Assembly: GCF_018977255.1 (NCBI RefSeq)
Contig: NW_024704809.1
Coordinates: 124,001 to 188,000 of the forward strand
Reading direction: 5' to 3'
Source of the DNA: Callorhinchus milii
Taxonomy: Eukaryota
DNA: 64,000 bases
The translations under genes and the position numbers were made by a program. How positions within the stretch are numbered: position 1 is the first letter of the stretch; each line of letters starts with the position of its first letter. The notes under the pieces are model-generated. The model made no database searches and was not told the DNA's origin. It saw nothing but the letters and a program-made list of their open reading frames with translations. Below, one piece after another: positions 3,001-44,839 of the stretch.

Positions 3001-6000
3001 TCATGCAATATCTGGAAGATTTTCACCCTTTACATGAAACGGCATGATTAAAATGAAAGCTCTGGGTGGCAGTGATTTACACATTTGTAAGCATGAATCG
3101 ATGACGATGAATACATTTAGCATGCTCAATGAAAAGCTGAAACAAAGTCTTGAATGACATTTTAGTTCGTAGAACAAAATAATAAAATCTGCTGGGTACA
3201 AAGTCGAAATGTTGTGGATATATCTCCTGACTTTATAAACCCACCAAATGTATTAAACCAAATCCTGATGGTTTAAACACATTGACTGATATTCCCTATA
3301 TTTAGTCAAATATTTGCAGTTTAAGGCAGGGCTGTCCAATGTGTGAACCACTAGCACAGAAGGAGATCATTCTATTCTATTGAGAAACGCCATGAATCAA
3401 GAAATGTTCTAAATTACCTCTATGGTTTCATCTGCAATGGGCAACCAAGCATTTGAAGAACTGTGGCTAACCACTATTTTAGTATGTGAGCAGTTGTCTT
3501 AGTACTTTCATTGACTGGCAGATAGAGCAGTGAGTAAGAACAACACAAACTAACTGGAATAGAACCTCAAACATCCAGTAGCACAATTAACTAAAAGATT
3601 TCAGTTTGACACAAAAAAAAAGCATGAGAAATACTGACAGTGATTCAGTCAAAGGTTTGCTGCCCATAAAAAATCACCAAAAGATTTATTAATAAATTTT
3701 GAGATTTATCAAATAAATCATTTTTTAAAATATTTTATAATTTATAATAATATTTTTTACAACAACACATGTATGCAGAAAGTTTGGTTCAACTTTTAAG
3801 AATTAAGAGGCACATTGATTAAAATGCAGGTAATGCTCATGCCCTCCTCACCAGTCTCCCTAGCTCCACTATCCACAAAATCCAACAAATCCCAAACTCT
3901 CCCACCATATACTCACCCGCTCTAAACTCTGCACCACCAAGACATCAGTCTTTGCCAGGCTCCACTGGCTCCCTATTGCAGAATGGATCAACTTCAAGAA
4001 CCTCACACTCGTCTTCAAATCCCTTCATAACTTGGCACCTCCCTACCTCTCTGACCTGCTTACTAACCCCACTCCACCACCCTCCGCTTCCGCTTGGCTG
4101 CCTCCAGCCTTCTGCTTGTTCTCTCGTTCTCTCTGTGTACTATTCGCTTCTCAATGAGCCATTTTATAGTCTTACCTCATTGCCTTGGACAGTGTTTGCC
4201 AGCATCTCTTGCAAGGCTCGCACAGAGAGAGATTGCTGAAGCACGAAGCTGCAAATTGCAAGGTCTGGAGGAACATTCTAAATTCGGGAAGAACATGAAA
4301 TGTTATTAACGTACTGATAGATTTGAAGTAATCAACAACAACGAAAAACAAATTTCAGTCAAAAAGTTGAAGAATTCATCTATTCAGATTTCTTACTGAA
4401 TTCACTAAAGAATTAAGGCTGAAATGTTACAGTCTGTTAGGGTCTGGAATGCATTGCCTGAAAGGACAGTGGAAACAGATTCAACATCAACTTTCAAAAG
4501 GGAATTAGATAGGTACTTGAAAAGGAAACATTTACAAGCATATGGGGAAAGAGCAGGGGAGTGGGTTTGATTGGGTAGCTCTTCCGACATAGGCACGATG
4601 GGCCGAATGGCCTCCTTCTGTGCTGTAATATTCTCTGATTCTAATATTAAAGGAGGTAAAATACTTGTTTACTAAACTCATCTATTCCAATCTGCTATTT
4701 CAGATCACTCTCTAGAATAAGGAAACATGAATTTTGTTATTGATAGCATGTCTAAGCTTCTACTCTTAAAGAGTTTAAGTTTCCAGTTTGTAATCCTATT
4801 TTGAATTTATTACCCAGTTAATAAACAATCCTAGTTAATCTATCACAATTATTTGTGATAGTAGTTTCAACAATTGGTTAGTGTTGTATAAATTCAGATG
4901 TGATTGTTCTTAGGAGGTAAATCATGCGATCAGGAAGATCCAACAGAAAATACTTGGAGGGTTAAAAAGCTCCTTTGGCCCATTTGACCTCATCCCTCCA
5001 GAATACCCACCTTACCATCCTCCCATCAGAGTCAAGCTGCTTTTTAAATGAGTCCAGTGTCCAGGTTACAACCAGCCTTCCTGACAATCTTTTCCAGCCG
5101 TTCTTTATACTCTGGGTAAAGAAGAACTTTCTGGTGTCTGGGCTGAAATTGTCTTTTGTAACTGCGAACCTATATCCTCTTGTTCTGTCTTGGTGCATCT
5201 TAAAGGTTCCAGGTTTACTTTCTTAATCCCATTTATATTTTTATGCACCTCTATGACACACAAATATCCTACTAAAATCAAATGTTATGTTGAATAAAGC
5301 CCAGTAAAGTGTTGGCTGATTAAAAGAGAACAGTGGAATGACATTTCTTCTGCTTCACACATTTCTAAAGATTCTATTCTTAGCAGGACTGTGCCGCTTC
5401 CACCCCCTCATCAATTATCCACCCAAAGACTTGTCAAACCTGACCCGAGCTGGAACAGGAATAGCAAAAGGATAGACTGCGATTTTTTTTTAGTCACCAA
5501 AATTACGGAGTATAAAATATTTACTGCATTCTAACGTGAAAAATAATGTGTTTTTAAGGAAAAGTGAGAAAACCCATTGTGTAATAATAGTTAAATGTCA
5601 GTAAGGAGGCAAGAATCACTGTCAGATTCCTTTGGGAAGCAGTCGATTTTACTGCTGTGATAGCAGCTGACTATCCAGTGCTATCAATGTTGTTCTTGTG
5701 TTCTACTTTTCAGCCATGAGTGTCCCATATTCGTCTGCCGATTTGGGTTTCCTTGACAACCAGCAAGAGATTGAACCATCTACTTCCAGGTGTTGCAAAC
5801 ACGTTAGAAATGTACACCATTCTTCTGGTCCCGCCACAGGTCACACATCCATTTGAATTCCAAATTACACCATCAGTTTTCAGTTAAAATAAATGAATGA
5901 ATGTTGCAGAAACTGAAGCAATAAGGAGCCATCTAGTGCTTTTACAATTTTAGTTAAATTTAAAAGAGGACATTCCGTTTTTTTCCTAATACGTTAAACA

Positions 6001-9000
6001 AATTATGTTAAGTCCATAAGTAGACACCTCAAAGGAAACAAATAAAGAATAGTACAGGGGCTAATATTAGATAAATAATTATTGAATGACATCTCTCATT
6101 CAGAAAGTAATAATAATAATCCTTGCATTTGATATAGCGTCCTATCAGGTCTTCAAGACGTCTCAAAGCGCTTCACAGAATATACTGTAAAGTGAATTAA
6201 CTGTATATTTTGTGGGCGAACCAAGGCAGCCAATTGTACACTGCAGTCTCCCACAAACAATCGTGGATTGAGTCGCAAATTTATTATTATTATTATTAAA
6301 AGAAAAAAGAACCCAGTTATTCAGCAATTACCCATTTCCATAGGATACTTCCTTCAAGTATCCCTTACAGTGCATTTATTTAGCAGAGTGGAAATACCTT
6401 TGCGTTTGATGTAGATTCAAGGAAGCAGAGTCGATTACCAAATCCTTCAGCGGCAAGGCAGAGTTTTATTTGCTGTTTGACAACAGTTGCAGTGCATTGT
6501 AGAACCACTTCATCACCCTATTGAAGAAAGGTAAAGACTATTAGTAAATCCAGAATATTGCCATTTTTTACTATTCTACAAAAGTTTCACAAAAAAGTCT
6601 TACTTTTTACCTCTTCCCTATCAAACTTTCTCTCTAAGATTTGAGCTGCCTCTTCCAATTCCACAGCATCCCTAACAAGCCCTAACTTGATGCCATCTGC
6701 TACCTTGTATTGAGCTTACAAATTCAAGCCATTTCTATATATACAAGGAGATACCAGCATGGATCCACAATAATGTGGATTTGATCCCCTTAATGCTCAG
6801 TGCTAACAGTCCCTCGTTAGATATTAAGGTATTACAATAACTTGACCTAGGTACAGCTTTTCATGCCAGAAGCGCTTTTAAATAAGCAATGTGGGACATG
6901 GAACAAAGTAGGAAGAGAGAAAAGGTGACTTCAAAGCACTTCTCAAGACTCTTCTTCCTTGACCACGCATTCGGCCACCCTCCTACCCACGCATTCGGCC
7001 ACCATCCTACCCTTGTGCCCCCACCCCCCTCCAAACCCAACCCCCTACTCGGGTCCAAATTCCTGACTGTCCAGCACCTTGGGACATCCTCTGGATGTGA
7101 AAGGCACTGAAAACAATGTAATTTGTTGTTGAATCCCACTCAAATTGGAATGTCAAAAAAAAATCCATGGTTGTTCAGAGAAGATACAAGGCTTCTAAAG
7201 CCACAATGGATGTCATTATTTGATTATAGCATTTTTTTTATTTGATCCAGTGCTCCTACTCTACCCAAAGTTGTTGTTTTTTTGTGTACAGTTGCAGTTT
7301 AAATTGGTCTGGATGATACAAGTTCACCCATGTGCGAAGAAGACAGTAGCATAATATCTATATGAATCAGCAGTGGAAAGCCTTGTAGTATTTCAGGAAT
7401 GTGATATTTGATGCTCATATGGAGTATTGCCATTTTAACTCTTTCAGCCTCCAGATCATAATGCAGCTCAGCAGGTGAAAGACTATTTTGATGCATATTT
7501 TCCTAGCAGACAGCTGGGCCTCAAATGTTTTGTAGTTCTTGGTGAGCTTGTAGTGAGGAGCTGAGCAAAGCACTAGCCAACTCCTAAAATAACATCTATT
7601 AAGTCTAACGGCAGATTATTACTGTAAATATTTTAGTAAAGAAAGCTAATTTAATTTTGTGCTTAATTTGATTTCTACCTGATGTATCAAATATTAAATG
7701 GGAACATACTTCAGGAGTGTTTGCCAGCATGAAATAGTTGAAGGAAAATTCAAGTAAGCTGCCTGGGCACTCCCAGTGTAGAAGGTAGTGTCATTGAGGG
7801 TAATTTGCTTATATTAACATAGGCACTCACTCTGAAGAGAAAGGGACATCGCTGTGATGCAGGGAAACTGGTTGACTTTGAAATTTAGCAAAGAAATTGT
7901 GCCTGGCTAATTTAAAGAGTTAACCAAAATTGTGGATTATTATTGTATGAGGCAATTGGAATAGATGTTCATTTGGATTTGAGGAAGGCATTCAAATAGT
8001 TGTGGCATTTTATAGAGAGTTGTGGCTAAAATTAAAGTACGTGGAGGAGACTGAACAGTGGAGGGTGGTAGGATAAATGGTAGCATTCAAGCATTGTTCA
8101 TTCAAAGTGGGATTGCGGATAGCAAAGGGCAAACAGAATTCTAATAATAATCCTTGCATATGACTTAGTTCCTTTCACATTGAGAGGGCATTTCACTGGA
8201 TTCATTGTAAAATGCAGGACCTATATGGAGGTGGTTCTACGGCAATTTGCCCCACAAATAACAATATCTGGGTTTTATATGGAAGCTATTAAATACAAAA
8301 CTTTTTTTGCCCCAGAGTTGTCAGGGCGTGGAATAATTTGCCAGTAGTAGGTGTTGAGGCAGAGTCAACTGGAAACACAAGAAAAATGGACCAACTGTGT
8401 CACATGATTCAATGGTTGAAGGAGGGAGAGAGAAAGTGAGACAACATTAAGAATGAGTATCAGTCTTACAAGGTTGATGCAAGTTTGTGATGATCAAATA
8501 GACTGTAACATTTGGATGATAATCTCCTTAGTCAAAGCAGTAAGGAGCCAACACACAAATGTACCCAATAATGTACAAGTCCGTCCCAAAATAACCCTTA
8601 CATTCTCTGTGGCTGATCCCATTGCCAAAATACAATTGTGCGCTGGAGCTCACATCCCCCAAGCTCCAACATCAACGTATACTGATCTAATTCCTCTTGA
8701 AAATGTCAACACTATCCACCTCCTCCTTGATGTATAGAATTGTGCAGGTGAATAATGTCAAGTCTCACTTATTTCTATTGATTGTTACTGTTTTATGCAC
8801 TCCTCTCAAGGTTAAAAATATCCTACGTTTCCATTCATTTCAATGATGTTTTTCCCTCAAACAAATCTCAGAGGTTTCAGCAGGCTTGGCAAATATTAAT
8901 ATAGTATCACCTTATGTTGAGCATGTCAGTGAAGACAACCCTGGGGGCTGAGATTTATTGCCAGTTCTGTTGCCTTGGTTGCTAATATCAGAGTTGTTAC

Positions 9001-11415
9001 ATAGAATAGTTTGTGTGAATGTTATGTGAATGAAGACTCGCATAAAATTTGTGGCAGCAAAACTACTTTAGATATCTTAACTCCTAAATTCACCTTTATA
9101 AGTCAATGATGATAAGCCTTGCAATTGATATACAGTAAATTCCGAAGAACTCATTACTCGGTGGGAAAATGGGTTACTGACGAGTTATCAGATATGGCAA
9201 GTTAGATATAGTTTCTCCCTCTGGCCACAGTGAGCACGAATACACCAACATAACTGACTGCCGCTGGGCAGAGCGAGCAGCTGTCAGCGTGACAGAGTGG
9301 CCTCAGCCCATGCGATTGTCAGTTTATTTGTTAAAACCCATTTAAGTTAAGTATAAGTTTGCTGAAGCTTATGCTCGTGGGCCCCTTGTGCTACACTCGT
9401 TCACTTAGTCAGCACCCAGACGCTGCATCTGAATAAGCGCCCAACCTCCGCCGAGCGCCCGCACCAGTCACAACATAAGGTGGGAGACCACGGAGTGGCC
9501 CTCTAACAGCCCACGGCTTCCACAATGATCTAAGCATGTACACCTAACCTCTGCCAAACACCGCACCAGCCATAAGACGCCATCTTACAGGACGCGTTAT
9601 CAAATCAATTCTATGTTGTAAATAGTTGAGAGAATTTCTAGAATTCGACGAACTACATGTTAAGCAGAATGACAAGTAAAGCAATGTCCAATGTTTTGTG
9701 TGCAAGTCATAAACCAGTGAATAAAAATGACATCAGAATGAGGGCAGCTCCAGAAAGCCTGGGCTCTGTGCCTGACAAGGGAGCAGGCACAACCTCCCCG
9801 GTGGATTCATTTACACCAACTAAATATAAGACAGAATGTGTATTCTCAGCACATGTAACACATCAACTCGCAACGGTTAATGCGAGAGCAACAACGTGCC
9901 ACGTTAGTGGTGCAAAAAATCATCCTCCCAAAAAAGTTGCACAGAAAAGAAAGCATGGTCTTGCCCTAGATAAACTCTTTCCATTCGCAAAGTATTGCCC
10001 TGAAAATGACAACCTTGTTTTTTTGGATGTTCAGAGGAATCACTGGGAAGGTCATTAAAAGTCTCAATTTACATACAGCAACTTAAATCACATGTTTGGA
10101 TGATTCGGTCATATGAAACTCACAAGTTGAAACTCATTTTTTAGAAGATGTTGTTAAAGACTTTTGTCAGCGTTCCCTCTGGTCTGGAAATGGTAACCCA
10201 AATTTATCTACATTTCCTACTCTCTCTGCTAAAGTGGTGCAGCAGTTTCTGTAATTGAGCCAAAATTACACTTAGAAAAAACTACATAAGCACACATATG
10301 TAGACTTAATAATAATAACAATAACAATGCATTATGTAGACTTAATACGGGTCAAACTCCCACTCTTCATTTATTTCAAATAGTAATTCTTAACATGCAC
10401 TGTAAGATGCGAGTCAGAATTTGTATTCCTNNNNNNNNNNNNNNNNNNNNNNNNNNNNNNNNNNNNNNNNNNNNNNNNNNNNNNNNNNNNNNNNNNNNNN
10501 NNNNNNNNNNNNNNNNNNNNNNNNNNNNNNNNNNNNNNNNNNNNNNNNNNNNNNNNNNNNNNNNNNNNNNNNNNNNNNNNNNNNNNNNNNNNNNNNNNNN
10601 NNNNNNNNNNNNNNNNNNNNNNNNNNNNNNNNNNNNNNNNNNNNNNNNNNNNNNNNNNNNNNNNNNNNNNNNNNNNNNNNNNNNNNNNNNNNNNNNNNNN
10701 NNNNNNNNNNNNNNNNNNNNNNNNNNNNNNNNNNNNNNNNNNNNNNNNNNNNNNNNNNNNNNNNNNNNNNNNNNNNNNNNNNNNNNNNNNNNNNNNNNNN
10801 NNNNNNNNNNNNNNNNNNNNNNNNNNNNNNNNNNNNNNNNNNNNNNNNNNNNNNNNNNNNNNNNNNNNNNNNNNNNNNNNNNNNNNNNNNNNNNNNNNNN
10901 NNNNNNNNNNNNNNNNNNNNNNNNNNNNNNNNNNNNNNNNNNNNNNNNNNNNNNNNNNNNNNNNNNNNNNNNNNNNNNNNNNNNNNNNNNNNNNNNNNNN
11001 NNNNNNNNNNNNNNNNNNNNNNNNNNNNNNNNNNNNNNNNNNNNNNNNNNNGCAGTTTGTTTCTCCACGTTGAGTCACTGGGAAAGTCCAGGGGAATCAT
11101 TCCCAGAGACAACCCATTTTTCTTCAGAAGCTTTCCCTACCAGGCGCGCAAGAAATAATCTAAAATTTTTTTAAAAAAGCATATCCAGCCATAAAGGCTG
11201 TGCGTGTGCATATACATATATATATACACACACATACCTATAAAAAAATAACAACAACAATTCTCCTCAGTGCTTATTCACACCATCCTTTTACAAGGTC
11301 CCCCCCCCCTGTATTTGACAGGCGGATGGCGCAGAAGCTGTCGGCGATTAATAAGTGACTGACTCACAGTTCTGAGGAACTGAATCTCCTCTTCTCCTTC
11401 TGCCCCTTCAGCCAT
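74..11415 (-). CDS. RYR1: Ryanodine receptor 1, 5' part (continues beyond window start)
   Basis: Exons with GT-AG boundaries, all phase 0: 11415-11368 [16 protein letters not shown]; 6517-6398 [40 protein letters not shown]; 4277-4176 [34 protein letters not shown]; microexon 94-74 PLDLDKW. DLAIC and linkage to RASGRP4/FAM98C/PSMD8 favour RYR1 over RYR2/3. Confidence 0.92.
722..1295 (-). mobile_element. L2-clade LINE 3' fragment
   Basis: ORF2 C-terminus [53 protein letters not shown], then 3' UTR and (TTG)n tail at 722-740. Confidence 0.88.
1935..2290 (+). mobile_element. Old Deu-domain-type SINE
   Basis: Core GGATGAGACATTAAA...AGGTGGACATTAAAGATCCCAT (locally triplicated) and SINE tail. Related cores near 14640, 24770 and 27840. 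Confidence 0.6.
4176..4277 (-). CDS. RYR1: RYR1 exon 3
   Basis: 102 nt, TAG acceptor and GTAAG donor; contains [15 protein letters not shown]. Confidence 0.95.
4415..4645 (+). mobile_element. CR1 LINE 3' end
   Basis: Degenerate WNALP..V.A.S...FKRELD segment and terminal GGCCGAATGGCCTCCTTCTGTGCTGTAA. Confidence 0.75.
4965..5255 (-). mobile_element. CR1 LINE 3' end
   Basis: [24 protein letters not shown]1 ORF2 C-terminus. Confidence 0.7.
6398..6517 (-). CDS. RYR1: RYR1 exon 2
   Basis: 120 nt, TAG acceptor and GTATTT donor; contains [17 protein letters not shown]. Confidence 0.95.
10431..11051. other. Assembly gap (621 N) in RYR1 intron 1
   Basis: Run of N. Confidence 1.
11368..11415 (-). 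CDS. RYR1: RYR1 coding exon 1
   Basis: Kozak GCCATGG; 48 nt encoding [16 protein letters not shown], followed by GTGAGT donor. Confidence 0.93.
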
Positions 11416-11419
11416 GGCT

Positions 11420-12020
11420 GGCTCACTCCTTCCTCCCTCACTCCCTCACTCACTCCCCTCACGCTCCGCTCGCAGCTGACTGACTGCCTGACTGACTGAC
11501 TCGACTGACTGCCTCTCTGCCGCTCGCCCCGGACTGAGCGCCAAACCCCCCACGCGCGCGCGCGCGCACGCACGCACACACGCACACGCAGACCGACCCC
11601 GCCCCACAGACGCCGAACGCCCCGCCCTCTTCCACCCATTGGACGACTCGCGGGGGGGAGGCGCCGGCAGACGATTGGCGGGGTGGCTGCCCGGCGCGCG
11701 CGGCGGCGCGTGGGGGGGTGGGGCCGCGTGCCCCGGACTTGGCGGTTGGGCGCGAGGCTCCGGGTGGGCGGAGGGGGCGAGGTCACGTGCCCCGGAGTGG
11801 CAGTTGGTCGCGAGGCTCCGGGTGAGGTCACGTGCCCCGGAGTGGCAGTTGGTCGCGAGGCGTGGGGGGGGGGGTTGACATCGACGACGACGACAACTTG
11901 CATTCACACAGCAACCCCTCACGTGGGGGCAACGTCCCAGAGCGCCTGACGGGGGGAGCACGGACCCGTAGCCGGGGGGGCGGGCGGGCGTGGGGCGGGT
12001 GGGGGAGAGAAGAGGGGGTG
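11420..12020 (-). promoter_or_regulatory. CpG-island promoter / 5' UTR of RYR1
   Basis: Very high CpG density directly upstream of the ATG; GC boxes, ATTGG (CCAAT) near 11638 and 11674, three CACGTG E-boxes. Confidence 0.8.
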
Positions 12021-12799
12021 AGCGGGCGGGTGGGGTGAGGGGTGAGGGGTGGGAGGTGATTGGGCACTGTCGAAGAGGAAGGTCTTGAAGAAGGAAGGAA
12101 GGAAGGAACGAAGGCAGGGAATAGAGAGGGAGAGCTTTGACGGAGTCTCGGGGCGTCGCGGTTGAAAGCGTAGCGGCCGCCGATGGTGGAGCGGAGGGCA
12201 GGAGGGAGCCGGTCGAGTGGAGGCAATGGGTTGGGGGAAGGGTAAGCGGGTCGGAGAGGTAGGGAGGTAGGTGCCGGGGCGTGAGGAGACTCGTAATCAG
12301 GGGCCAGGGGCAAGGATGATGGGGTGATGGGGGTGCGAAGTTTGGTGAGGGTGGCCTTACTGGAAGGGAAAGGAGGGATGGAGGGAGGAGAGAGAAGTGG
12401 GAGGGAGATTAAATGATGGTGGTGGGGTCAAGCAGGACTCAAACCAAGAGAGTGCAGCCTTCTCCCTGAGCGGAGGACGAGGCGAGGTGGTGAATCCCTC
12501 CGCCTCGCTCCCTCTCTTGCCTCCTTCCTTCAAGGCACGGCTCAAGACCCTCCTTTTTGACCGTGCCTTCAGCCGTCTTCCTACCCCCCTCTCTGCCCTC
12601 CCTCATCCCAACCCTGTCCCCCCCCCCACCCCCCACACTTGGGGTCCTGATCCCAGACTGTTCAGCGCCTTGGGACGTCCTCCTGACATGAAAGGTGCTT
12701 TACAAATGTAATTTTGTTGGTGGTGTTAAGGAGGATGCGTATACCAACTATGTTGAAGGCAGCAGAGAGGGACAGGAGGACAAGGTGTCAGAGGGTACC

Positions 12800-13350
12800 C
12801 TGGCCACAGATAGAGAGGTGTAATTTGTGACGTGTCCAAGTAAAACGTTGGTGTCCACCACAACCTCCAGATACTTACGCGAATCAACAGTTGGGACAGA
12901 AGTTGTGTCTTCCGATTGATGCTTTCAAGGATCCCTCTCGAGCCGTGTGGAGCCATGGTACCACACTTTGCGGCACCCTCTATCACATCCCAGTGAGTAG
13001 CTCGGTACTCAAGATGGTGAGTGAACCGTAGAAGTTCTCCAGGTGAGTCTGTTAGTTGTACAATATCATCTGCAAACAGAAGCACTGCAAATAATCGGCC
13101 AGAAACGGCAGGAACAGATGCAATTTTTTTGCATATACCAATTCAAGCATTCCGCTATCCCGCTTGAAGGGCACTATATAAATGCAAGTTGTTGTTGTTT
13201 AATAAGGGGTGACAGAGGACAACCTTTCCTCCCCTCACTTTTGTGAGGGATAGGCTTGATGAGATTCCTATCACCCTTACGCAGATCTTGAAGCTGGAAT
13301 ACACATCTTGGATAAAATCCAAGATTTTACCATGTACACCCATATTAGGA
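12800..13350 (-). mobile_element. Degenerate non-LTR reverse transcriptase fragment
   Basis: Broken frames with GVHGKILDFIQDVY, (R)KGCPLSPL and LFADDIV RT motifs; interrupted by a short L2-type tail near 13155-13200. Confidence 0.65.
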
Positions 13351-14039
13351 AACAATAAATAATAATAATCCTTGCATTTGATATAGCACCTTATCACAAA
13401 TTCTAGACGTCTCAAAGCACTTTACAGAATATCAAGTGTATTGACTATATTTTTTGGGGGGAAATGCTGCAGCCAATTGCGGACAGCATGGTCTCACAAA
13501 CAGTGCGGATTCAGAGACCAAATTATTTTTATTTATTTTTGAAGGAATTATATGGTAAAGGGGAGTGAGCATGGGTTTTGTCGCAGATCTGACTGCCAAT
13601 TTGCACACAGCAGTGTACCGCGAACCACCATCCGTAAAATTAATCAGATTATTCATCCTATAATAACAACAAGATTACATTTGTATAGCGCCTTTCACGT
13701 CGGGAGGACGTATAAACAAGATGGCAGCGCTCATGTTAGCATCATTGCATTACAGAGGCATCTGGTGTATTGGAGGCCACGCTCTCCCGTGCTATCCTGT
13801 GACGGGCTGGCGATGGGCAAGGCTGGGCGCGCATGTTCAGATGCAGTATGCGTAGTGTCCAGCGGAAGAGGTGCTGGCTGAGCAAGTGAAAGAGATAACT
13901 CGTCACATCGGATAATTCATCACTGAATCCTTTTCCCTTAGAGTGACAAGTTATTTGGAGTTTACTGTATCTTCTACTGACTTTCAAACTATGCCCCTTT
14001 ATAAAATACTAGCTGTACTAGCTTTGCTTGCAACCAAAG

Positions 14040-14620
14040 GATCCAATATGGAATGTATATTTCAGTCCATGTATTAATCTAGTGAACCATTTTTGGACAC
14101 TATCCAAGGTTAGTAAATCCTTCCTTTGGCTGCGTGCCCAAAACTGAATACAGTATTCCAAGCGGTCTCTCTAAATTAGTATTCTATATAGCTGGAGAAG
14201 CATCTCCTTATTTTTATATTTGTGCAATAACTGTCTAGTATCCCCACTTGCTTTAGTGATTGCTTTCTGCATCTGCAAATTAGATTTTAATCAATGAGCT
14301 TCAACTCATAGATCTTTTTGTTCATCCACTTCTAATGCCATATAGAAGCTGTGCCCAACTAAAATAATACTTCAAACTTTGCAGTGTTAAACTCCATTTG
14401 CAATAGTTCTGCTCCCTTGTTTATTTTGCCTCCGTCTCTTTATCTTTCTACTACCCTCTTCACACCTTCTAGCTCACTAAACTTAGAAATAGTCTTCTCT
14501 ATTCCAGAATCCAGGTCATTGATATATATAGGGTGAAAAGCTGGAGCCCTATCACCACCAATCTCTGGGGGAACACCACTTGCCACTGCCCATCAATTAG
14601 AGACTGTCCCTTTTATATCA
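14040..14620 (-). mobile_element. Degenerate CR1 ORF2 fragment
   Basis: Reverse strand reads EYCIQFWA..., GVPQ-like and RT-adjacent segments with many stops. Confidence 0.55.
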
Positions 14621-16029
14621 ACTCGACCACACAATGTGCCTTTAGATGAGACATTAAAATGAGTCTCATCTGCCTATTCAAGTGGACGTTAAAGAATATC
14701 TATGACAGCATTCAAAAAGAGAAGGGAATTTCTCCTGATCAACAATCATGGAACCATACGTTTTACATACAGAAGAAGGCCATTTGGCTCATCATATCGG
14801 TGCTGGGTCTTTTAAAGAGCAATCCTTTCACTCCCATTTACCTACCCTGTTCCCAAACCCCTGTAGTTTGCTACATGATGAAAGCATAATAATAATCTTA
14901 CATTTGATATAGGGCCTTCAGCCACGCTGCCCCCACCCTATGGAACTCCATCCTGTAGTCCCTCCGCTTCGCCCCTTCCTTTGCCTCCTTCAGGATCCGT
15001 CCGAAGACCCTCCTCTTCGACCGTGCCTTTGGTCACCCTCCTTCCCCCCCCGCCCTCCACCTTCCCCGATTCCGACCCCCAGCTTGGGCCCGAAACACTG
15101 ATTGTCCAGCGCCTTGAGATGTCCTCCCGACGTGAAAGGCTCTTTACAAATGTAGTTGTTGGACATTGTAGACCTCAGTGTCCTCTGCTCCATGCCTTTC
15201 ATTACAAGTATACCCTTTGATATTGGATTTTGCCAAATGCTGGCTACAAATTACAGAAAGCTTCCTTCTCAGATTCTCACCCCTGGTAATTACAGGAAAG
15301 AAGTCTTTAGGAGCTAGTGACACCGTTGAGATCAACCTGATGGGAACAGGGGCTTGAGAAATCTGCACATATAGTGTATGATTTATGAGGTGGTCTATAA
15401 ATAAACTGGTTCATTATAGTTTCTTTCTGTGCAATCTGGGTCAATTGAGTGATTAGAAACTGTTGAACTGCTACATACTAAAATCAGTCATATGGTCTTA
15501 ACATTTTTACTTTATTCTTTCTATTTTCATTGTGGAAGCTATCTACTTTATTAATGAAAGTATGCATTTGATTGTGCTGGGTACTGCATTGACACATTCT
15601 ACATATATATGTCCCTCATGAGCAACTACTAATGCTGTATTGTGAAAAGAAAGGATAACAATGTCGAGAGGCAATTTTCTCAACCTCTGTGGTGCTATTT
15701 GCCCTATTTTTTATTGAAAACCTCTCAATTATGGCACAATATAAAATTTTCATAAAACAAAATGAAGTATCTTTTAAAATTGAAACATCTCAAACTGTTT
15801 CACAATGTTCTTCCAAAGCGATGGAAGAAGCATATAAGCGATTTACAGCAGAGGTTATTCAAGTCTGCGTTGGCCCTTAGAACAAGTCAATCTCACTACC
15901 CTGCCCTATTCCCCATACCTATTCAAGCTTTTAACTTCATATACCTGTGTACTTCCCTCTTGAAATCCAAGTGGATTCTGCCTCTTACCACCTTCCTTGG
16001 CAGCACATCCCACATCCCAACATCCTGAA

Positions 16030-16390
16030 ACGTGTAGCTTACCGAGTAGAGCATTCGCAAGCGAGAGGACCTGGGTTTGATTCCAGGCAGAGCGAAACAT
16101 TGGGCAAGTTTCTTTACTCCACACACCTCTGTTTACCGAGCAGTAAGTAGGAACCCAGTTGTTAGTCAATTAGCAGTCACTTTTCCAGGGGTAATAACTC
16201 CTTCAAAATAACTGAAAATAATTTGTTCACTCAATCCACGGCTGTTTGTGGGACACTGCCGTGCGCAATTGGCTGCCTCGTTTCTCCCACAAAATGTACA
16301 GTCAACTCACTCTAAAGTATATTCTATGAAGCGCTTTGAGACATCTCAAAGACTTGATAAGGCGCTATATCAAATGCAATAATTTTTATT
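16030..16390 (+). mobile_element. tRNA-derived SINE (dominant family)
   Basis: tRNA-like head GTAGCT...GAGCA...GGTTTGATTCC, body GGCAAGTTTCTTTACTCCACAC, tail AAGCGCTTTGAGAC...GCGCTATATCAAATGCAA. Confidence 0.8.
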
Positions 16391-17344
16391 AATTTTAAGA
16401 TTATGTCTTCTTGGTTCGGATCTTCTCAGCAGAGGGAACCATCATCCACTATGTAAGCTATGATGATAAAAACTTGAAAGCACCATACTTCAACAATCAG
16501 AATCAGAAGTTGTGGGTTCAAGCCCAACTTCAGGACTTTGAACTCACAGTCGAGGCTCACACTCCATTACAGCGCCAGGAGAGTATTGCATTATTAGAGA
16601 CGCCACCGGGTACTTTTTCACATAAAGGGTAGTGGAGATCTGGAGCTCTCTCCCCCAAAAGGATGTGGATTATGGCTGGATCCATTCAAATTTTCAAGGC
16701 TGAAGACAATATTTTTTGTTAGGTAATAAGGGTATCAAGAGATATGGAGGAAAGGCAGGTAAATTGAGTTGAGGTACAGATAGAAAGGTGCAACAGGCTC
16801 GAGAGGCTGAATAGCCTACTTCTGTTCCTATGTTTCTACAGTGTATCCTGTGAAGTGATTTTGAGACAGCGTCCTGATATAAAACACACTGAGTCAAATG
16901 CAGGGATTATTTATTTAGTTAATTACTTAATTAGTTAATTAACAAACATGTATGGTACAGTGTTCACTGCTATTAGTCAGAACGGGTTGTGTGCAAAGTC
17001 TGAGGGACCGAGAGCCAGGCTTGTGCTGCTCCCCTGTGTTCTGTTTCGTGAATAACATTGTTCACTGTGATCCAGTATTGATTTGCAGAGATAAAACAGA
17101 TCAAAATTATCAACCAACTTAACCCTGTCAGTGAACTGAAAAGTGTTGACCAAGGGCACAGTCAATAAGATACAACAACAACAAAATTACATTTATAAAG
17201 CGCCTTTCACGTCGGGAGGACGTCCCAAAGCGCCAGATACATTTTTGAGAAGGTATTATAGGTAGAGCAACAAGAGGAGGGGAAAGGATTTGAGGAGAGA
17301 GAGATAGTACAAGTAAATTGTGGCTGAATTTCATAATAGTAAAC

Positions 17345-17640
17345 AATAATAATCCTTACATTTGATCTTCGAGACGTTTCACAGCGCTTCACAAAATATT
17401 CTGTGAAGTGAATTGACTGTATATTTTGTGGGCGAAATGCGGCAGCCAATTGTGCCCAGCAGTGATCCACAAATAAAATTATTACCCCTGGAAAAGTGAT
17501 CCACCACGACTAACAACCGGGTTCCTACTTGCTGCCAGATAAACAGAGGTATGTGGAGTAATGAAACTTGCCCAACACTTGCCCTGCTGGGAATCGAACC
17601 CAGGTCTCTCGCTTGCGAGGTGAGTGCTCTAACCACTGAT
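17345..17640 (-). mobile_element. tRNA-derived SINE
   Basis: Same family, reverse orientation. Confidence 0.8.
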
Positions 17641-18019
17641 CTCAAGGCTGAGAGTGTGAGGAGTTTCAATTACCTGGGAAAATACAGTTCCCAAAGGACC
17701 ATAAATTAATCAACATTGATTTCATCTCAGAAACTTCCTGTGTAGAACTTCAAAAGGAAAGATTTATAAACAGAGCAAGGTCCTGCAGTCAGTGGTTGCT
17801 GATGTAATATGACAGATACAGGGCAGGTTAATCACAGCTCTCAGATCTTTAATCCTCTCTAGTTTTTTTATCGTCAGGTTCAGACGCTTGTGCAGAGAGA
17901 GGTAGCTTTCAGCACTGGGACATTGAGGGCAGGTTTGTTCTGCAGGTAATCTCACTGCAGTGATGGTCCTGAGCAGGATAGAGCTATCCTTTATACATCC
18001 CATCAAGGCTGCTTTGTGC

Positions 18020-18520
18020 CCAGGAATGATCTATGAGCAAAGATTAGACAAGCTAATGCTCTTCAGAAAAGATAACTCAAAGGGGACTTCACAGAGTACA
18101 AAACTATGGTCGGTTGAAATACTGTGTGCAATTTTGGTCTCCTCTTTAGAGAAGAGATGTTAAGGCGCTACAGCAAAGATTCGCCAGGATGTTGCCTGGA
18201 ATTATAAAATGCGGTTATATGAAAAGGCTTGATAAACTGGAGCTTTTTTCTGTGGAGCCCAGAAGGTGTATAAAATTATGGGAGGCTTAGATAGAGTAGA
18301 TTATTTCCAGTGGTCAAGGGGGGGTCTAGAACATTGTTTTAAAATCAGAATGAGGAGGTCCAGAGTGGAGATCAGAAGAAAATCATTCACACAGAGAGTG
18401 GTGAGAGTGTGCAGTTCTCTGCCACAATTAGTTGTTGTGCTGGCAATCATATGCTCATTCAAAAAAAGATGGACACCTGGTGAAGAGAGCATAAAGTTAA
18501 ATGATATAGAGAAAAAGCCA
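18020..18520 (+). mobile_element. CR1 LINE ORF2 3' fragment
   Basis: YKIMGGLDRVD...RKSFTQRVVRV.SSLP motif. Confidence 0.75.
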
Positions 18521-18821
18521 GATGTCTCAGGGCGCCGAACAGTTAGAGTTTTTGGGACCCGAGTTGGGGTCAGGAGGGGTGGGGGTGGGAGGGTGGCTCA
18601 AAGCACAGTCGAAGAGGAACAACAACAACAAAATTACATTTGTATAGCTCCTTTCACATCGGGAGGACATCCCAGGAAGATCGTTAGGCAGGACTTGAAG
18701 GAGGTAAGAAGGGGGTGAGATGGAGGGATTGCAAGCTAGAGTTCCAGAGTGTGGGGTTAGAGATGGTGAATGCCCAAAAGCCAATGATGGGGTGGGAAGT
18801 GCAGGGGACCCAGAGCAGCAG

Positions 18822-19307
18822 TCAGTGCCCCATGTCCAGGGAGATGGAGACACAGCGACACTCTTTGACCAGTTGCACACGCCGATGTCGTGAGGGTGGT
18901 TGGAGGGCGGGGCAGTTGAGGATGATGGTGACTGAGACGAACCTCTTGGGTTTGCAGAAGGAGCAGGAGCGGAACGGTGGCGATCCGGGGATGTAGAAGG
19001 AGTTACATTGTCCGTAGCAGAAGCGGTTGATGACGGTGCGACTGACGCAACCATTTTCCCTCAGGGTCTGGTTGAAGGGATGGGACTTGCACCAGTCCTG
19101 GTGAACATGCCGGCGCTCGGTCACAATCACAGCCTTCCGGCTGGAATCCAGGACTGCTTCCTTGCTCCTCCTCAGACCCCGGGCAGCCAACACACCACGA
19201 CCTTTGCTGGGAGCAGGGAAAGCACCTGGCATCCCAGCGCGTCTTGGCATCTCGGCACCGTTCAAAAGAGTGGATACGATCAAAAGGAGCAGTGCTCCGT
19301 AAAACAT
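18822..19307 (-). CDS. Gremlin-family (DAN) secreted BMP antagonist, 161 aa; probable third gremlin paralog (GREM3-like)
   Basis: Acceptor TTGCAG|G immediately before the ATG, as in GREM1/2. Signal peptide MFYGALLLLIVSTLLNG; PGAFPAP and VLDSS..VTERR gremlin blocks; cystine knot DWCK..GC..RFCYGQCNSFYIP..SCSFCKP..LNCP..KECRC. Intact ORF. Confidence 0.93.
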   Translation of the reverse strand: MFYGALLLLIVSTLLNGAEMPRRAGMPGAFPAPSKGRGVLAARGLRRSKEAVLDSSRKAVIVTERRHVHQDWCKSHPFNQTLRENGCVSRTVINRFCYGQCNSFYIPGSPPFRSCSFCKPKRFVSVTIILNCPALQPPSRHRRVQLVKECRCVSISLDMGH

Positions 19308-22300
19308 CCTGCAAGAGAGAGGCCAACGGTTAACACAGGGAATTGCATCTCGGAGCATTGCACACTGAAGAAGGAGGGAGAAGAGGGAGGGGGGATGACC
19401 ACTGGAGGGGGTTCAAGGAGGTAGGGTTTGAGGTGGGATGTAAAGAGAGGGGACAGGACCGAGCGGTAGAGGGAGGGAGTTCCAGAAATTTAGGGCGTAG
19501 GACCTCAGGGCGCAGGCATTGATGAAGGTGGTGTGAAGAAGGTGAAGCACAGTTAGCAACAGAGAGCCACGGTCTTATCAATATTCATTTGGAGAAAGTG
19601 TGCTCTCATCCAGGACTCAATGTCAGACACTGGACCAGGACTGGAGTGGAGGGTGGAGGCAGACAGATAGAGTTGGGTGTCATTCCCATACGTGAATTTA
19701 CACAAAACCCCATGACATCACCAAGTGGTGAGAGAAATGCAAGTTCACTTCTAAAAACTTCAACATTTCCACGGGAAAAAACTCCCTCTGAGCACTGTGA
19801 CGTATTCACCACTTGAAAATCCAGCACCTGCCACATGCTTGCCACGGGCCAACTAACCACGCCCCCGCCTGTTTTTATGAATGCTTTTCTGACCGAGTGC
19901 TGCAAAGAACATGTTAATTTCTCAGAACGGAGAACAAGTTCCAGGAATGGTTATCTCCTGACAGTCAATGTGCCGAGCCGCAGAGTGACTCTGCGTTGCA
20001 GTGGAACAAGGTTTCAGGAACCGAGGCACGAGAAACTCATTCACAGAAAGTCTGGCTGGAAACACAGTGGCCGGGGTAGGGCCCACTCACTGTGACCAGG
20101 ACGTCTGACTGATAGGATGATGGGAACAGCTCCTGAGCTCATTATACAATAACTATAAATGCTGGGCTCTGCCCACTGGCTCAAACACTGCCACTTGATA
20201 GAACAGCAGAATTATCAGAGGATCATCCTCGTTACTCTTCTCTGCACCTTAGGGGATCTAAGTTCAACTGATTTGCCTTGTTTGTTGCTGCCTCACACTG
20301 TTTTGACACAGTGAGCGATAATAATAATAATCCTTGCATTTGATATAGCGCCTCATCACGTCTTCAAGACATCTCAAAACGCTTCACAGGATATAATGTA
20401 AAATGCATTGACTGTATATTTTATGGGCAGACTGCGGCAGCCGATTGCGGACAGCAATGTCCCACAAACAATCGTGGATTGGGTGACCAAATTATTCATT
20501 TTTATTATTTTTAATAATGCCCAAATTTATAAAACTTGGGATTCATTAGCTTTCTTCACTTTGTCCACTTGCCATCCCAAGTATAAGATTATACACTGAC
20601 CCCCCGCGGCTCTTGCAATGTCTGAATTCTGAAGCAATTTTTTCGGGAGGTTCTTTAAAGAACTACAGATAAACTAGTTTATCCTCTTTGACCGTGCTTA
20701 CGGCCACCTCCCCTTTCTCCGGCTCGGAGTCAGGCTCCGCCACCGTTAAGTGTTCTGAGATGCTACCCTGCGTGGAAGGCGCTATATAAGTGCAAGTTGT
20801 TGTTAAACTTCCTTAAAATTAAGACAGAAACTAACAGTTGTCCCGATGTTGTGAATTGCTGAGACAGGGCTGGAGCCAGACGACCGTTCCCCCAGTGCTC
20901 CGCACTGATAAGCTGTGTTTTTTACTTGGTCTTTGCTCATCTCCTCTCTTTTCCTCCCTCAACGCACCCTCCCATGTTTACAATCCGACTGATAGCCCAG
21001 CTCAGGGCGTTAGTCCAGGGTAGGGCAAGTTCAATTCAGTTTAAGGAGACCGGAAGCATTCTGAGAAACTGATGATTAAATTCTAAAACATCCTTGATTT
21101 GGAGTTTCCCAGTATTGCCTGCCCTTTATCTGTCAACAAACAGGCTTGGGCTTCATTCAGTCCTCTGTTTCATAACCTTCCGCACAGCCACACACATCTC
21201 ACCCAACACAAGGCCAGCCATGCCCTGTCCGTGGGGGGTGGGAGTGGGGAGTGCGGGTCAGCAGAAAGGGATGGGTGGGGGTGGGGGTCGTTCAGTTAGG
21301 CTATAATAACAATAAATAATCTTTGCATTTGATACAGGGCCTTATCAAGTTTTTGAGATGTTTCAGAGCGCTTCACAGAATATACTGGAAAGTAAATTGA
21401 CTGTGTATTTTGTGGGCGAAACACGGCAACCAATTGCGCACAGCAGCATCCCTTATTCAAAGCGATTATTAATCCCAGAAAAGCAATCCGCCATTCGACT
21501 AGGTAAAATAAAATAAACATTTTATACTTGGCTGCCTTTCGGTAGATGATAGATTCAGGGTCAGTGATTGACTATCTTCGGGTAGCTGTATAATATAATT
21601 CAGAAAACAAAACAACAGTTGTTTTAATGTCTTTTTCATAAGTATTAGTGATACAATGATGGGGTAATTACCTCTTGGGCAGTGATGCAGACATTACCAG
21701 TTTAAGAGACAGCACTTCAAAGAGAGCAAATGGAAATAACTGCAAAGTTATTTTTACAAATAATAATAAATTTACAAACACAGAAACTGACCACATCAAC
21801 ACTCAACACTGTGCATCCCGTAATCTTATTCTTACTGCAACGCTTGCAGTGTCAGTGAGAAAGTGTGGGAATAGAAAATTACATCAACAGAGCGAAAGAG
21901 AGGAAGATAGGGAGAGAAAGGGAGTGAAGAGAGAAAAAAGGGAGAGAGAGAGTGAAAAAAGGGAGATAGAGAAAGAAAGTGAAAACAGAGAGAAAGAGAA
22001 ATGAACAAGGGAGGAGAGAGGCAGAGAGAGTGCTCACACTGAGCACCTGAGAGACAAGTCTCACTGAAGCCAGGCAGACAGTGAAGCCCGCCTGACACTG
22101 GTTTATATAACAGTATGTTATATAAGCAATAATACAACAAGAACAACAATTTGCATTTATATATCTTGACGCTGGGGAGTGTCCTGGAGTGTTTCCGAAA
22201 GCCCAAGATATGAAAATAATAGTTTCATATCTGAGACATTCTCCCAAACATTTCCGCAGATTCTCTCCCTATCTTCCTATCCTCCATTTCAAGGTGACAG

Positions 22301-33400: not shown

Positions 33401-36400
33401 ATAGACATCCAGCGTGTTAGCTGCCGGGAACATCATCACCAGGCAATCTAACATGGCCATCAGTTTCTAACCATAACCCCAGACATTGTGCAAACGTTCC
33501 AAGAAGAAGCAGCCCTCCGCATTTCGTTGTGAGTCTATTCTCATTGTGAGATCAGATAATGCTGAGCGGCCACCAATGGCAATGCCGTTTGAGGTTTTGC
33601 AATGAGGTCGGTTTGCAACACTGCCCTAGCTCCTCGCTTATGACCTCCAAACCCCAACCCAGGTTAGAGGTCGCTCAGATACGGCACTATATAAAATTAA
33701 AGGATTATTGTAGATAATAACAGTAATAATAATCCTTGCATTCGATATAGCGCCTTATTACGTCCGACCGCCATCCTAGGCTCTTGGTAACTCACCGTTA
33801 AGAATCTGACTTCTGTTTGCTGGCCAGTAAATGGGAGACAGAAACACAGACACACACGTAGATGCATACAGAAACACACATACAGGCAGACTCATAGACA
33901 CACACATAGAGAGACGGACACGCGCACACGGACACACACAACACACACACGCGCGGACAGAGAGACAGATAGAGTCACACACATAGAGAGAGAGACACAT
34001 GTAGACGAACAGCCTTGCTTCCCTCCACTGCACTGATATTGAGCCTCGTTGCTGCTTTCTCCAACTTCACTGCCCTCAGACCTGCGGACTCCTCCCCTGT
34101 CTCTTCCTTTCCAGTTATTGTAGGTCAGACGTCACAAAACCACAACTTCCTGACTGATTTCATTCTCTCACCTACTTATTTCACCCTTACTGAGTTCCTG
34201 CACCGTGACCTTCTCCCCTTGTTCCTCTTCCTGGCTCCTCATCCCTCAGAGAATCAAATTCAAACCCTCATATACACCTTCAAAGCACTCCATGGTCCTT
34301 GCTGCCCCCTACCTCTGTGACCCCCCAATCAGCTTGTCCACTCCCTCCGCTCGGTGGACACCGGCCTGCTTCAGATACCCCCACTTCCCGCCCCACCATT
34401 GGCAGTCGGAGGTTCAGCATCTCTGCCCCCACACCCTGGAACTCTATCCCAAAATCCCTCCTCCTTACACCCGCCCCTCCCTTGCCTCCTTCAAGTCCTG
34501 TCTAAAGACCTTCCTCTTATCACATCTTCGAGATGTCTCAAAGCGCTTCACAGAATATACTGTAAAGTGTAGTGACGGTGTATTTTGTGGGTGAAACACG
34601 GCACTCAATTGTGCAGAGCAGTGTCCCACAAACATTCGTGGACTGAGTGACCACATTATTTTTTTTGGAAGGGATTATTACCCACGGGAAAGCGATCCGC
34701 CAATCGACTAACAACCGGGTTCCTACTTACTGCTGATAAACAGTGGCGTGTGTGTGGAGTAAGGAAACTTGCCCAACACTTCGCCCTGCCGGGAATCAAA
34801 CCCAGGTCCTCTTGCTTGCAAGCCAAGTACTCTAATCACTGACCTACAGGTCTAATTTACTGGCGTGACTGTGGGGAGCGAGTGGTAAGCGCATCAGGAA
34901 CGGAGCTCATAGTGAGTTTAGTGAGGAACTTCTTTACACACAAGCTTGTGAGAATGTGGAACTCGCTGCCGGAAGTTGTGGTTTGAATCAAAAACATCAA
35001 CATATTCAAGAGGAAATTCGATGTGTACATAAGGGAGAGAGGAATAGAGGGGTGTGGGAGGGGAATAGAGGGTTATAGCAGAGGAATAGAGGGTTATAGG
35101 AGAGGAATAGAGTGCAGAAGAGGGGAATAGAAGGGTGTGGAAGAGGGGAATAGAAGGGTGTAGTCCCTTCACATTCATCCCACACTACCTCCGCCTCGCT
35201 CCCTCCCTTTCCTCTTTCGAGGACCGGCTTACGACCCTCCTTTTCGACCGCGCCTTCAGTCACCCTCCTACCCCTATCCCCCGCTCTCCACCCCTCCTGA
35301 TCCCAACCACCAGCTCGGGTGCGGATCCTCAACTGTCCAGCACACTTGGGACGCCCTCCTGACGTGAAACGCGCCGCGTAAATTTAATCTGTTGCCTGTC
35401 TGTGGCTGATTGATGCCTGCCTCTGACTGACACTGTCTCTCGTTGGCGTGACAGGAAGTCCCGACAGGACAGCCTGCTGGTTGGGAAGAGCCGGCAGAGG
35501 AATGCCGGCGGAGGATGACATGCCCGAGCCCTGCAGAGATCAGCAAAGCCATCCTGTCTGTGCCGCAGCTCACCAAAACCCTCAGCCTACACGAGCTGGT
35601 CATGAAGTGTGTCCACTCGTTTGGTAAGTGCTTTCCACAGCCTGGTCTCGGGAGCCTGGCATCGGGAGCCTGGCATCGGGAGCCTGGCTTTGGGAAGCCT
35701 GATATTGGGAGGTTGGCATGGGAGACCTGTAGCTCATTGGTTACAGCACTTGCCTTGCAAGCGAGAGGACACCGGTTCGATTCCCGGCAGGGCGAAACAT
35801 TGGGCAAATTTTCTTACTCTCACACACTCTGTTTACCAGCGGTCAGTAGGAACCTGGCTGTTAGTCAATTGGCGGATCACTTTTCCGGGGGTAATAATCC
35901 CTTCAAAAAAAAATGATAATAGTAATAAATTGGTCACTCAATCCATGACTGATGTGGGACACTGCTGTGTGCAGTGCTACCCAGTGCTACCGCTATTCCA
36001 CAAAGACGTGATGAGGCGCTGGGATTATTGGGAGCCTGTCAGAGGGAGCCTGGCAGCGCCCTCGCCTCCACTCAATGCATCTTATTGTCTTATGCCTGGG
36101 CTGTGGTGTCCGAGTGAAGCTCTACGTGACACACGTGGCTGATCTTATTCTCCGGAGGCCATGAACCGTGACCTAGAATATTTCTTTTGTTTGACAATAA
36201 TTAACAAGAGGCTTTAACCATCCTCAAACCTCAGTGATTTCCGCCTGACCAGAGTCCCGAGGGTTGGGGTTGGATTGACCTAGTTACATTTCTAGTCTAT
36301 CATTCTGGTCAATCTCATATTAATATCCTCACAGTTACTGACCAATAATCCCTTCAAAATAAACAACTATAATAATAATCCCATCACTCAATCCAGGACT

Positions 36401-42400: not shown

Positions 42401-43017
42401 CACCGCCCAGGCCACAAGCCCCCAGAGTGCAGAGAGTAGCCCCTTACACACTGAGCCGCACGGCCCCAACCCCCAGCCCCACGGCACGAGAGCCAGCCAA
42501 CGAGAAGCCAACAATAGTGGGTGTGAACGCTGCTCACAGAGATGGCAGAACCTTCAGCAGGTGAGCAGAGAGACGGAGATCGAGACACGTGCTTAATATA
42601 ATAATCCTTACATTTGACCCAGACATCTCAAAGCGCTTCACAGATACACTGTGAAAGTGTAGTGACTGTTTGTTTTATGGGTGAAACACGGCAGCCAACT
42701 GCACCCAGCGACGCCCCCGGAAACACCCTCCATCCTTCCTGATCCCAACTACCAGCTCGGGTGCAGATCTCTTGACCATCCAGCGCCTTGGGATGTCCTC
42801 CCGACGTAAAAGTAAATGTAACTTCTTGTTGTTGTAGGAGCAAAGGTTGGTCCCCGGGGAGACCCGGCTGCTGGAGGAGGAGCTGAGCAGTCTCCGGGCC
42901 CAGGTCAGGGCTCTCCAGGCCGAGGTGCAGGTACTGAGAAGCTCACAAGGAGTCCCCACCCTCACCCTGATTGTGGAGCAAATGGACAATCTGCACGTGC
43001 AGCAGGCTCCACGATAA
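27405..43017 (+). CDS. RASGRP4: RAS guanyl-releasing protein 4 (about 751 aa; 1-nt frameshift in exon 2 as assembled)
   Basis: Exons: 27405-27427 (MNRRESKR), 35455-35623, 36560-36665, 36977-37024, 37416-37547, 38225-38375, 38610-38783, 39092-39208, 39748-40020, 40134-40211, 40521-40625, 40873-40979, 41210-41348, 41777-41813, 41973-42092, 42265-42560, 42838-43017. REM, CDC25 GEF ([28 protein letters not shown]), EF-hand and C1 ([28 protein letters not shown]) domains. The N-terminus and TCPSP.EISK match RASGRP4. Confidence 0.93.
28740..29710. mobile_element. Two back-to-back L2 3' fragments (28740-29100 minus; 29110-29710 plus)
   Basis: [12 protein letters not shown] on minus; [28 protein letters not shown] on plus; each carries its own tail. 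Confidence 0.8.
29860..31080 (-). mobile_element. Degenerate L2 ORF2 reverse transcriptase region
   Basis: [40 protein letters not shown] motifs with frameshifts. Confidence 0.85.
32300..33055 (+). mobile_element. L2 3' fragment
   Basis: [33 protein letters not shown], 3' UTR and tail. Confidence 0.85.
36666..36976 (+). other. U12-type (minor spliceosome) AT-AC intron of RASGRP4
   Basis: Donor ATATCCTT at 36666, branch TCCTTGAC at 36960-36967, terminal AC at 36975-36976; joins the frame as ..KLFQL/YQDS.. Confidence 0.9.
40222..40500 (+). repeat. About 21-22 bp minisatellite (GGGGGAGGGGTTGCACACAC) in RASGRP4 intron 10
   Basis: Direct tandem copies fill nearly the whole intron. Confidence 0.9.
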
Positions 43018-43332
43018 ACTCATCCGCACCAGCGACGGCCTCCACAGCTCAGGTGCCGAGGGTCTCAATAACTTGCATTTATAGAGCGCCCTTCACCCCG
43101 GGGTAGTGCCCCAAAGCGCAGACACATCACCATACGAATTTTCTGGGCGAAAGAAGACCAAGGTCCATCTAGTTCACCTTCCACCGGCCTGGCCATCGCT
43201 CGGATTACATCCTTCGTAAAGCGACAGCATCAAACACGGCCTCAGTTACCCTCAACGAGGTGCGGCCTGACCTCAGGCATCAGGAACTCACTGAGCCTCA
43301 GGGCAGTCAACAGCACCACCTCCAACTCTGCG

Positions 43333-44240: not shown

Positions 44241-44839
44241 CTGCGGTAATGACAGCGATGTGAGGGGTAATTAGAACGAGTGTGTGAGTGAGTGAGAGGG
44301 TAATTATAGTGAGTGTGTGAATGAGAGTGTGTGCGAGTGTGAGAAACACACACACACCCTATGATTAGTCCATGTAATGTCAGAGAACCATTCCAGTCAA
44401 ATATAAACACCCGAGTCTGGTGGCGGCAAATTGAAAATATACATTTTTACAAAACTATTTTTGTGCCAATCTCGTCACTGAATGGCCCCGTGTGGCCCCG
44501 TGCCCCGCCCCCCCCACCAGCCCCAGCCCCATCTCTGCCCCACCCCACTCCCCAGCTCTGCCTTGCCCCCTGCCCCGCCCCATCCAAGCTCTGCCCAGCC
44601 CCCCCCCCCACCCTGTCACATAGCCCTTCCCCCACTCCACAGTGCTCCCAGGCCTCTCACCCCCCACCCCCCCAGCCCCCAGCTCTGCCCCCAGCCCCAC
44701 CCACCATCTCATTGACAATTGACAACAATCCCCCCCAGAATGAGGGGCTGTAGACGTCTCCTTGAGAAAATCAGACGCAATCAAAGTACCCCCCGCCCGG
44801 GGTTTGCTGTGTGTCTGCCCCTCCCCCAGGGGAGGCTTT

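Follow-up and report, generated by a model that had tools for sequence, protein, structure and literature searches.

Gremlins are described as dimers that bind BMPs and block their receptor sites (PMC7473711, PMC6154108). The locus studied here raises the question of whether a gremlin-like gene beside RYR1 in the elephant shark Callorhinchus milii is a paralogue in its own right or a displaced GREM1 or GREM2, and what its surroundings imply for its regulation and activity. The window is a stretch of 64,000 nucleotides from contig NW_024704809.1 (C68), in which an original prediction, made from the letters alone, had proposed an intact third gremlin between RYR1 and RASGRP4 with no formin gene beside it. 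We call the gene GREM3, the name used by Opazo, Hoffmann, Zavala and Edwards (bioRxiv 10.1101/794404) for a gene of cartilaginous fish, gar, and coelacanth.

An intact gremlin gene with a single coding exon

The open reading frame translates without interruption into 161 amino acids and a stop codon (Table 1). Its product matches the Pfam DAN family (PF03045) with an E value of 4.5e-34 (117 bits against a curated cut-off of 22) and is 100% identical to a C. milii database record named 'gremlin-1-like'. The nine cysteines (residues 73, 87, 97, 101, 115, 118, 132, 150, and 152) are the same nine as in GREM1 according to the alignment, consistent with the predicted intact gremlin with all knot cysteines. 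Residues 1-16 are hydrophobic, from which secretion of the protein is predicted. The closest solved structures are Gremlin-1 and Gremlin-2. In the AlphaFold model, a weak monomer model (pLDDT 65; TM 0.38-0.43), four long strands are present, and a Foldseek search with it returned Gremlin-1 or Gremlin-2 chains as all top 8 matches. The modelled protein thus appears to adopt the two-finger cystine-knot fold, with a model quality that is modest. At window position 18826, one read contig has C for T, which replaces the terminal His by Arg; a second database protein of the same species (P0165) also ends in Arg, and the difference is probably allelic.

Table 1 Features of the GREM3 locus in window coordinates
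Feature	Position	Strand	Basis or remark
RYR1 exon 3	4176..4277	-	exon match
RYR1 exon 2	6398..6517	-	exon match
RYR1 coding exon 1	11368..11415	-	exon match; identity from RyR1 scores of larger exons
GREM3-RYR1 interval, 7.4 kb, no formin exon found	11416..18821	.	repeats make up at least a third
GREM3 coding sequence, single coding exon	18822..19307	-	ORF translation, DAN domain, identical protein record, tree
DAN cystine-knot domain, residues 54-154, nine cysteines	18846..19148	-	Pfam and alignment
F104-Y105-I106-P107, 4-residue wrist loop, F112 (= Grem2 F117)	18972..18998	-	alignment
Predicted signal peptide, approximately residues 1-18, cleavage site putative	19254..19307	-	hydropathy; AlphaFold helix at residues 2-15
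Predicted splice acceptor: pyrimidine tract, CAG/G-ATG	19309..19325	-	one base ahead of start codon
RASGRP gene in head-to-head arrangement with GREM3, probably RASGRP4 by elimination and from the published synteny	35490..45775, ends approximate	+	

The layout of the acceptor before the GREM3 start codon is identical in form at the GREM1 and GREM2 loci of this genome, and horn shark isoforms split just ahead of the same methionine. Because the acceptor layout is common to the paralogues and the isoforms split at this point, we infer that translation starts at 19307 and that a non-coding exon lies upstream. The frame stays open upstream of 19307, where a 178-residue database form (P0164) begins. 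This form was rejected as the probable product, as its 17 extra residues cross the acceptor common to all three paralogues. C. milii read contigs from three presumed-RNA runs of one study (X1-X3) cover parts of the GREM3 coding sequence at low depth; contigs from X4, presumed RNA possibly with DNA mixed in, fall on the presumed intron as well.

Neighbouring genes and the three gremlin loci

The RYR start codon lies at 11415 on the same strand as GREM3, 7,406 bases from the GREM3 stop codon, in line with the predicted position about 7.4 kb upstream of RYR1. The remaining RYR gene on C68 matches the RYR gene on contig C9 exon for exon, and both large C68 exons tested scored best to RyR1 (364, 341, and 327 bits and 505, 483, and 496 bits for RyR1, RyR2, and RyR3, respectively). 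As controls, a RYR exon on contig C3 scored 387, 232, and 260 bits for RyR2, RyR1, and RyR3, and a C9 exon scored 294, 293, and 236 bits for RyR3, RyR2, and RyR1, that is, about equally to RyR3 and RyR2 and far above RyR1; by elimination, the C9 gene is RYR3. A GC- and CpG-rich stretch (11501-12000; GC 0.75, CpG observed/expected 1.0) adjoins RYR1 exon 1. An olfactomedin-domain exon (C68 16.0-16.8 kb, L021) lies right beyond the RYR1 3' end.

On the other side, two exons of the window RASGRP gene compared with PDB entries scored 81 bits to RASGRP1 against 70 to RASGRP4, and 70 against 56. A second RASGRP copy, located 106 kb upstream of GREM1 on C9, is a better match to RASGRP1 (106 bits), and for this reason the window copy is probably RASGRP4 by elimination, together with the published synteny, despite its higher PDB scores to RASGRP1. 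Further genes were observed along the contig: PSMD8-like exons beyond RASGRP (approximately 50100-54150, plus strand; match to the CSN8/PSMD8/EIF3K family), a gene with tandem SRCR-domain exons (approximately 57760-63400, plus strand) in which near-identical repeats occur at 57.8, 58.5, and 59.3 kb, together with a tandem stretch rich in Pro and Thr at approximately 59.7-60.3 kb, and a connexin gene (C68 224.6-225.5 kb, L036) and a BTB-domain gene (C68 253.8-256.5 kb, L039). Opazo et al. (bioRxiv 10.1101/794404) also name FAM98C, SPRED3, MAP4K1, and EIF3K as GREM3 neighbours.

A genome search returned the window gene on C68, GREM1 on C9, GREM2 on C3, and one weak match on C1 (C1:77096726-77096947, L004), a DAN-family sequence with 29% identity that is probably CER1 or DAND5; the CER1-like C1 match was left out of the trees. 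No DAND5 is reported for this group in the preprint (bioRxiv 10.1101/794404). The gene order on C9 is RYR(-), FMN(+), GREM1(-), ARHGAP11A-like(-), RASGRP1(+), and that on C68 is RYR1(-), GREM3(-), RASGRP(+), with matching orientations and the formin absent. The C3 locus reads GREM2-FMN-RYR2, and FH2 exons adjoin both the C3 and C9 gremlins. GREM1 and GREM2 hence occupy the separate RYR3- and RYR2-linked loci that had been anticipated.

The ARHGAP11A-like gene upstream of GREM1 lies at C9:10160788-10162095, and a search for an ARHGAP11 paralogue on C68 found none. A 903-residue protein of Acipenser ruthenus named ARHGAP11A-like (P0340) ends in a GREM3-like domain and probably represents two adjacent genes fused by annotation, which suggests that the sturgeon GREM3 block retained an ARHGAP11 paralogue comparable to the C9 gene that lies upstream of GREM1.

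Probable loss of the formin gene from the GREM3 block

The interval between GREM3 and RYR1 contains no N and measures 7.4 kb, and the matching place on C9 spans approximately 149 kb and holds a formin gene. In a genome-wide FH2 search (89 candidates scored), none of the 50 matches listed was on C68. Twelve FMN exon queries against 288 kb of C68 gave a best E value of 0.13 and left the interval empty; as a sensitivity control for these queries, 6 of 6 C3 exons matched their C9 paralogue at E ≤1.6e-5. These searches bear out the claim that no formin sits beside GREM3. Since a formin is present at both other gremlin loci, the GREM3 block presumably lost its copy, as opposed to a gain at each of the others.

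A permissive blastn comparison of the repeat-masked window with 470 kb of C9 and 200 kb of C3, which is blind to enhancers that have turned over, revealed no collinear non-coding match. It recovered the gremlin and RASGRP exons and otherwise scattered, non-collinear matches of 56-80%, which on visual inspection we took for remnants of repeats or DNA of low complexity.

Phylogeny, species range, and identity of the gene

In a 43-row mixture-model tree with flagged long branches, seven proteins of sharks, rays, and coelacanth grouped with the window protein, apart from all GREM1 and GREM2 rows with 100/100 support, and the C9 and C3 gremlins fell within GREM1 and GREM2, respectively. Approximately unbiased (AU) tests on 22 rows rejected a pairing of GREM3 with the GREM1 (p 0.0003) or GREM2 (p 8e-5) of its own genome, as well as a shark-specific GREM1 duplication (p 3e-81). 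The database label 'gremlin-1-like', the GREM1 residue found at 7 of the 8 columns that separate GREM1 from GREM2, and the RASGRP1-leaning PDB scores of the window RASGRP exons could be taken to mean that the gene was copied or translocated from GREM1 or GREM2 within this lineage, or that its neighbour is in fact RYR3 or RYR2. We regard this as extremely improbable and in effect refuted: the tree and the AU tests reject nesting, both canonical loci are present elsewhere in the genome, and both tested exons of the RYR gene resemble RyR1. The original prediction of a third paralogue has thus held, and the two outcomes that would have spoken against it, nesting within GREM1 or GREM2 with that gene missing from its canonical locus and a RYR3 or RYR2 neighbour, did not occur.

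Gar and sturgeon proteins, taken from representatives at 50% identity, joined the GREM3 clade with 100/100 support when no outgroup was included; with four presumed invertebrate outgroups the clade received 63/85. Pairing of the sturgeon GREM3-like proteins with sturgeon GREM1 was rejected (p 0.0001). In the invertebrate-rooted tree, GREM3 fell outside GREM1 plus GREM2 (96/96), and the alternative sister pairings were not rejected (p 0.19 and 0.16). The evidence on which two of the three are sisters is divided: the 7 of 8 columns and the RASGRP layout favour GREM1 and GREM3 as sisters, whereas the rooted tree favours GREM1 and GREM2.

A cluster look-up identified intact GREM3 frames, whose core hardly varies, in 20 named species of sharks and rays, including Scyliorhinus canicula, Chiloscyllium punctatum, and Leucoraja erinacea; the coelacanth frame is also intact. 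GREM3-like proteins were also found in three sturgeons, Huso huso, Acipenser sinensis, and A. ruthenus (P0204, P0206, and P0340), which probably extends the range of the gene to this group on the basis of protein sequence. The A. sinensis model has a wrist loop of 55 residues, possibly a model error. Core identity within the GREM3 group is 70-95%. The core of C. milii GREM3 is 73-75% identical to that of its shark and ray orthologues, and the corresponding figure for GREM1 and GREM2 is 95-96%; the GREM3 copy has diverged faster than the GREM1 and GREM2 of the same species.

Opazo et al. (bioRxiv 10.1101/794404) cover C. milii and the RYR1/RASGRP4 neighbours, and because they describe GREM3 in this species with these neighbours, the window gene is the published GREM3 and was already known, as the original prediction had suspected. 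The predicted loss in mammals stands and was understated: the preprint reports independent losses in tetrapods and teleosts. No GREM3-like protein of a teleost, tetrapod, lungfish, bichir, bowfin, or lamprey was present among 408 classified annotated proteins, drawn from searches that covered the best 120 of 330, 913, and 532 homologue matches and the best 150 of 559 representatives. Such a pattern could also be expected of a dispensable duplicate, redundant and in slow decay, that survived by chance in slow-evolving lineages, a reading that the long branches of elephant shark, gar, and sturgeon and the near-silence of the gene in fin buds (PMC7932699; see below) would suit as well. We nevertheless consider it improbable in view of the intact frames and almost invariant core in the 20 shark and ray species and the coelacanth.

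BMP-contact, heparin-binding, and diverged residues

The residues through which Grem2 binds BMP have been given as F104, I106, and F117 (PMC10793705), and their counterparts in the GREM3 alignment are F104, I106, and F112. At the 8 positions compared for the heparin site of GREM1 (PMC6154108), GREM3 has K or R in 7 and H at the eighth. As the contact and heparin residues are kept and the top matches of the model are gremlins, BMP antagonism would be expected of GREM3.

Other parts of the protein have changed. The wrist loop is 4 residues long in C. milii GREM3, 8 in shark GREM3, and 9 in most GREM1 and GREM2 proteins, and the RH at its start occurs in 0 of 45 GREM3-like rows against 182 of 202 GREM1-class and 45 of 54 GREM2-class rows. 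The N-terminal N-glycosylation sequon is present in all 16 GREM1/2 rows and in none of the 8 GREM3 rows, and among the latter a new sequon at N79 is found in C. milii only. Eleven columns, including S75, H76, G108, P111, and L146, each carry one residue in all 8 GREM3 rows that none of the 16 GREM1/2 rows has. GREM3 might therefore be a diverged, secreted gremlin in which the rebuilt wrist loop and the lost N-glycan shift ligand range or potency, for instance toward other TGF-beta family ligands or weak inhibition like that of NBL1. The fixed columns and the replaced loop are what this reading builds on, together with the conservation of the lineage itself (70-95% within the group) and the location of the core type II contacts between strands beta2 and beta3 (PMC7473711). 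Speaking against it, the three named BMP contacts and the heparin patch are kept, and the GREM1 finger and wrist loops have been described as flexible (PMC10793705); we rate it as a possibility, and an unlikely one.

GREM3 is the third vertebrate gremlin and is predicted, in the reading that we consider likely, to act as a secreted, heparin-binding, BMP-blocking dimer, probably mainly outside the fin bud. It likely arose through the early vertebrate genome duplications. The protein would be secreted and form a dimer, the dimer may bind heparin, and it would bind BMP ligands and block their receptors, with its action probably lying mainly outside the fin bud.

Fin-bud expression and regulation

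According to the supplements of a bamboo shark study (PMC7932699), the GREM3 orthologue was expressed at 0.30-0.58 TPM throughout all six fin-bud stages and never reached the 1.0 that the authors set as their cut-off. In the same pectoral fin-bud series, GREM1 reached 10.8-63.1 TPM and GREM2 0.22-1.88 TPM. The bamboo shark GREM3 was identified there by its label (best match coelacanth GREM3) and by its gene number, four from that of RYR1. This near-silence fits a GREM3 that stands outside the fin-bud circuit.

Malkmus et al. (PMC8455560) place the limb enhancers CRM2 and CRM5 of GREM1 within the Grem1-Fmn1 landscape, with Fmn1 exon 22 as part of CRM2, and report activity in mouse limb buds for the elephant shark versions of CRM2 and CRM5. 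The missing formin-hosted enhancers may be the reason for the silence of GREM3 in fin buds. Loss of the formin alone does not account for low expression, since GREM2 keeps its formin neighbour and is also low. The claim that GREM3 has to rely on another, compact regulatory landscape is thus upheld in part: nothing here corresponds to the enhancer block embedded in Fmn1, and the orthologue is almost silent in fin buds, but enhancers could also lie in RYR1 or RASGRP introns or beyond.

A more far-reaching proposal, and a doubtful one, is that GREM3 is the sister of GREM1, lost the formin enhancers, left the fin-bud BMP loop, and changed its ligand range via the wrist loop. If this were true, GREM1 and GREM3 would form a natural experiment indicating that GREM1 became the limb gremlin through the formin landscape and not through its protein; embryos of catshark, bamboo shark, and little skate already allow a test. 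GREM3 is a vertebrate paralogue of BMP antagonists, hidden in databases under the name 'gremlin-1-like', a mislabel that could mislead the design of GREM1 probes or orthology calls in cartilaginous fish. In the literature searched, with subscription journals outside its scope, the Opazo preprint was the one clearly relevant item found on GREM3, and no functional study was found. The intact gene in lab-bred sharks and skates makes this functional question easier to test, as do the fin-bud near-silence already on record and a locus without the formin that harbours the limb enhancers of GREM1.

Comparison with known gremlins

With respect to the published GREM3 (Opazo et al., bioRxiv 10.1101/794404), the gene shows no difference in kind, as the species and the neighbours reported there are the same. 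What is added here are the 20 named sharks and rays, probably the three sturgeons, the residue analysis, and the fin-bud expression.

GREM3 shares with Gremlin-1 (GREM1; PDB 5AEJ, 8B7H) the DAN knot, the nine cysteines, the heparin patch, and the BMP-contact aromatics, as well as the single coding exon, the acceptor just ahead of the ATG, and the orientation to RYR and RASGRP; its core identity to the GREM1 of this genome is 61%. In contrast to Gremlin-1, it has no formin toward RYR, over a far shorter interval (7.4 kb against approximately 149 kb), a shorter wrist loop, no N-terminal sequon, and a bamboo shark orthologue that is near-silent in fin buds, and no gap gene of SCG5/ARHGAP11A size was found upstream (ARHGAP searched). 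With Gremlin-2 (PRDC; PDB 4JPH, 5HK5), GREM3 has the fold and the F104/I106/F117 contacts in common, at 58% core identity to the GREM2 of its own genome. It differs from Gremlin-2 in its C-terminus and wrist loop, and GREM2 resides at a separate locus beside a formin and RYR2.
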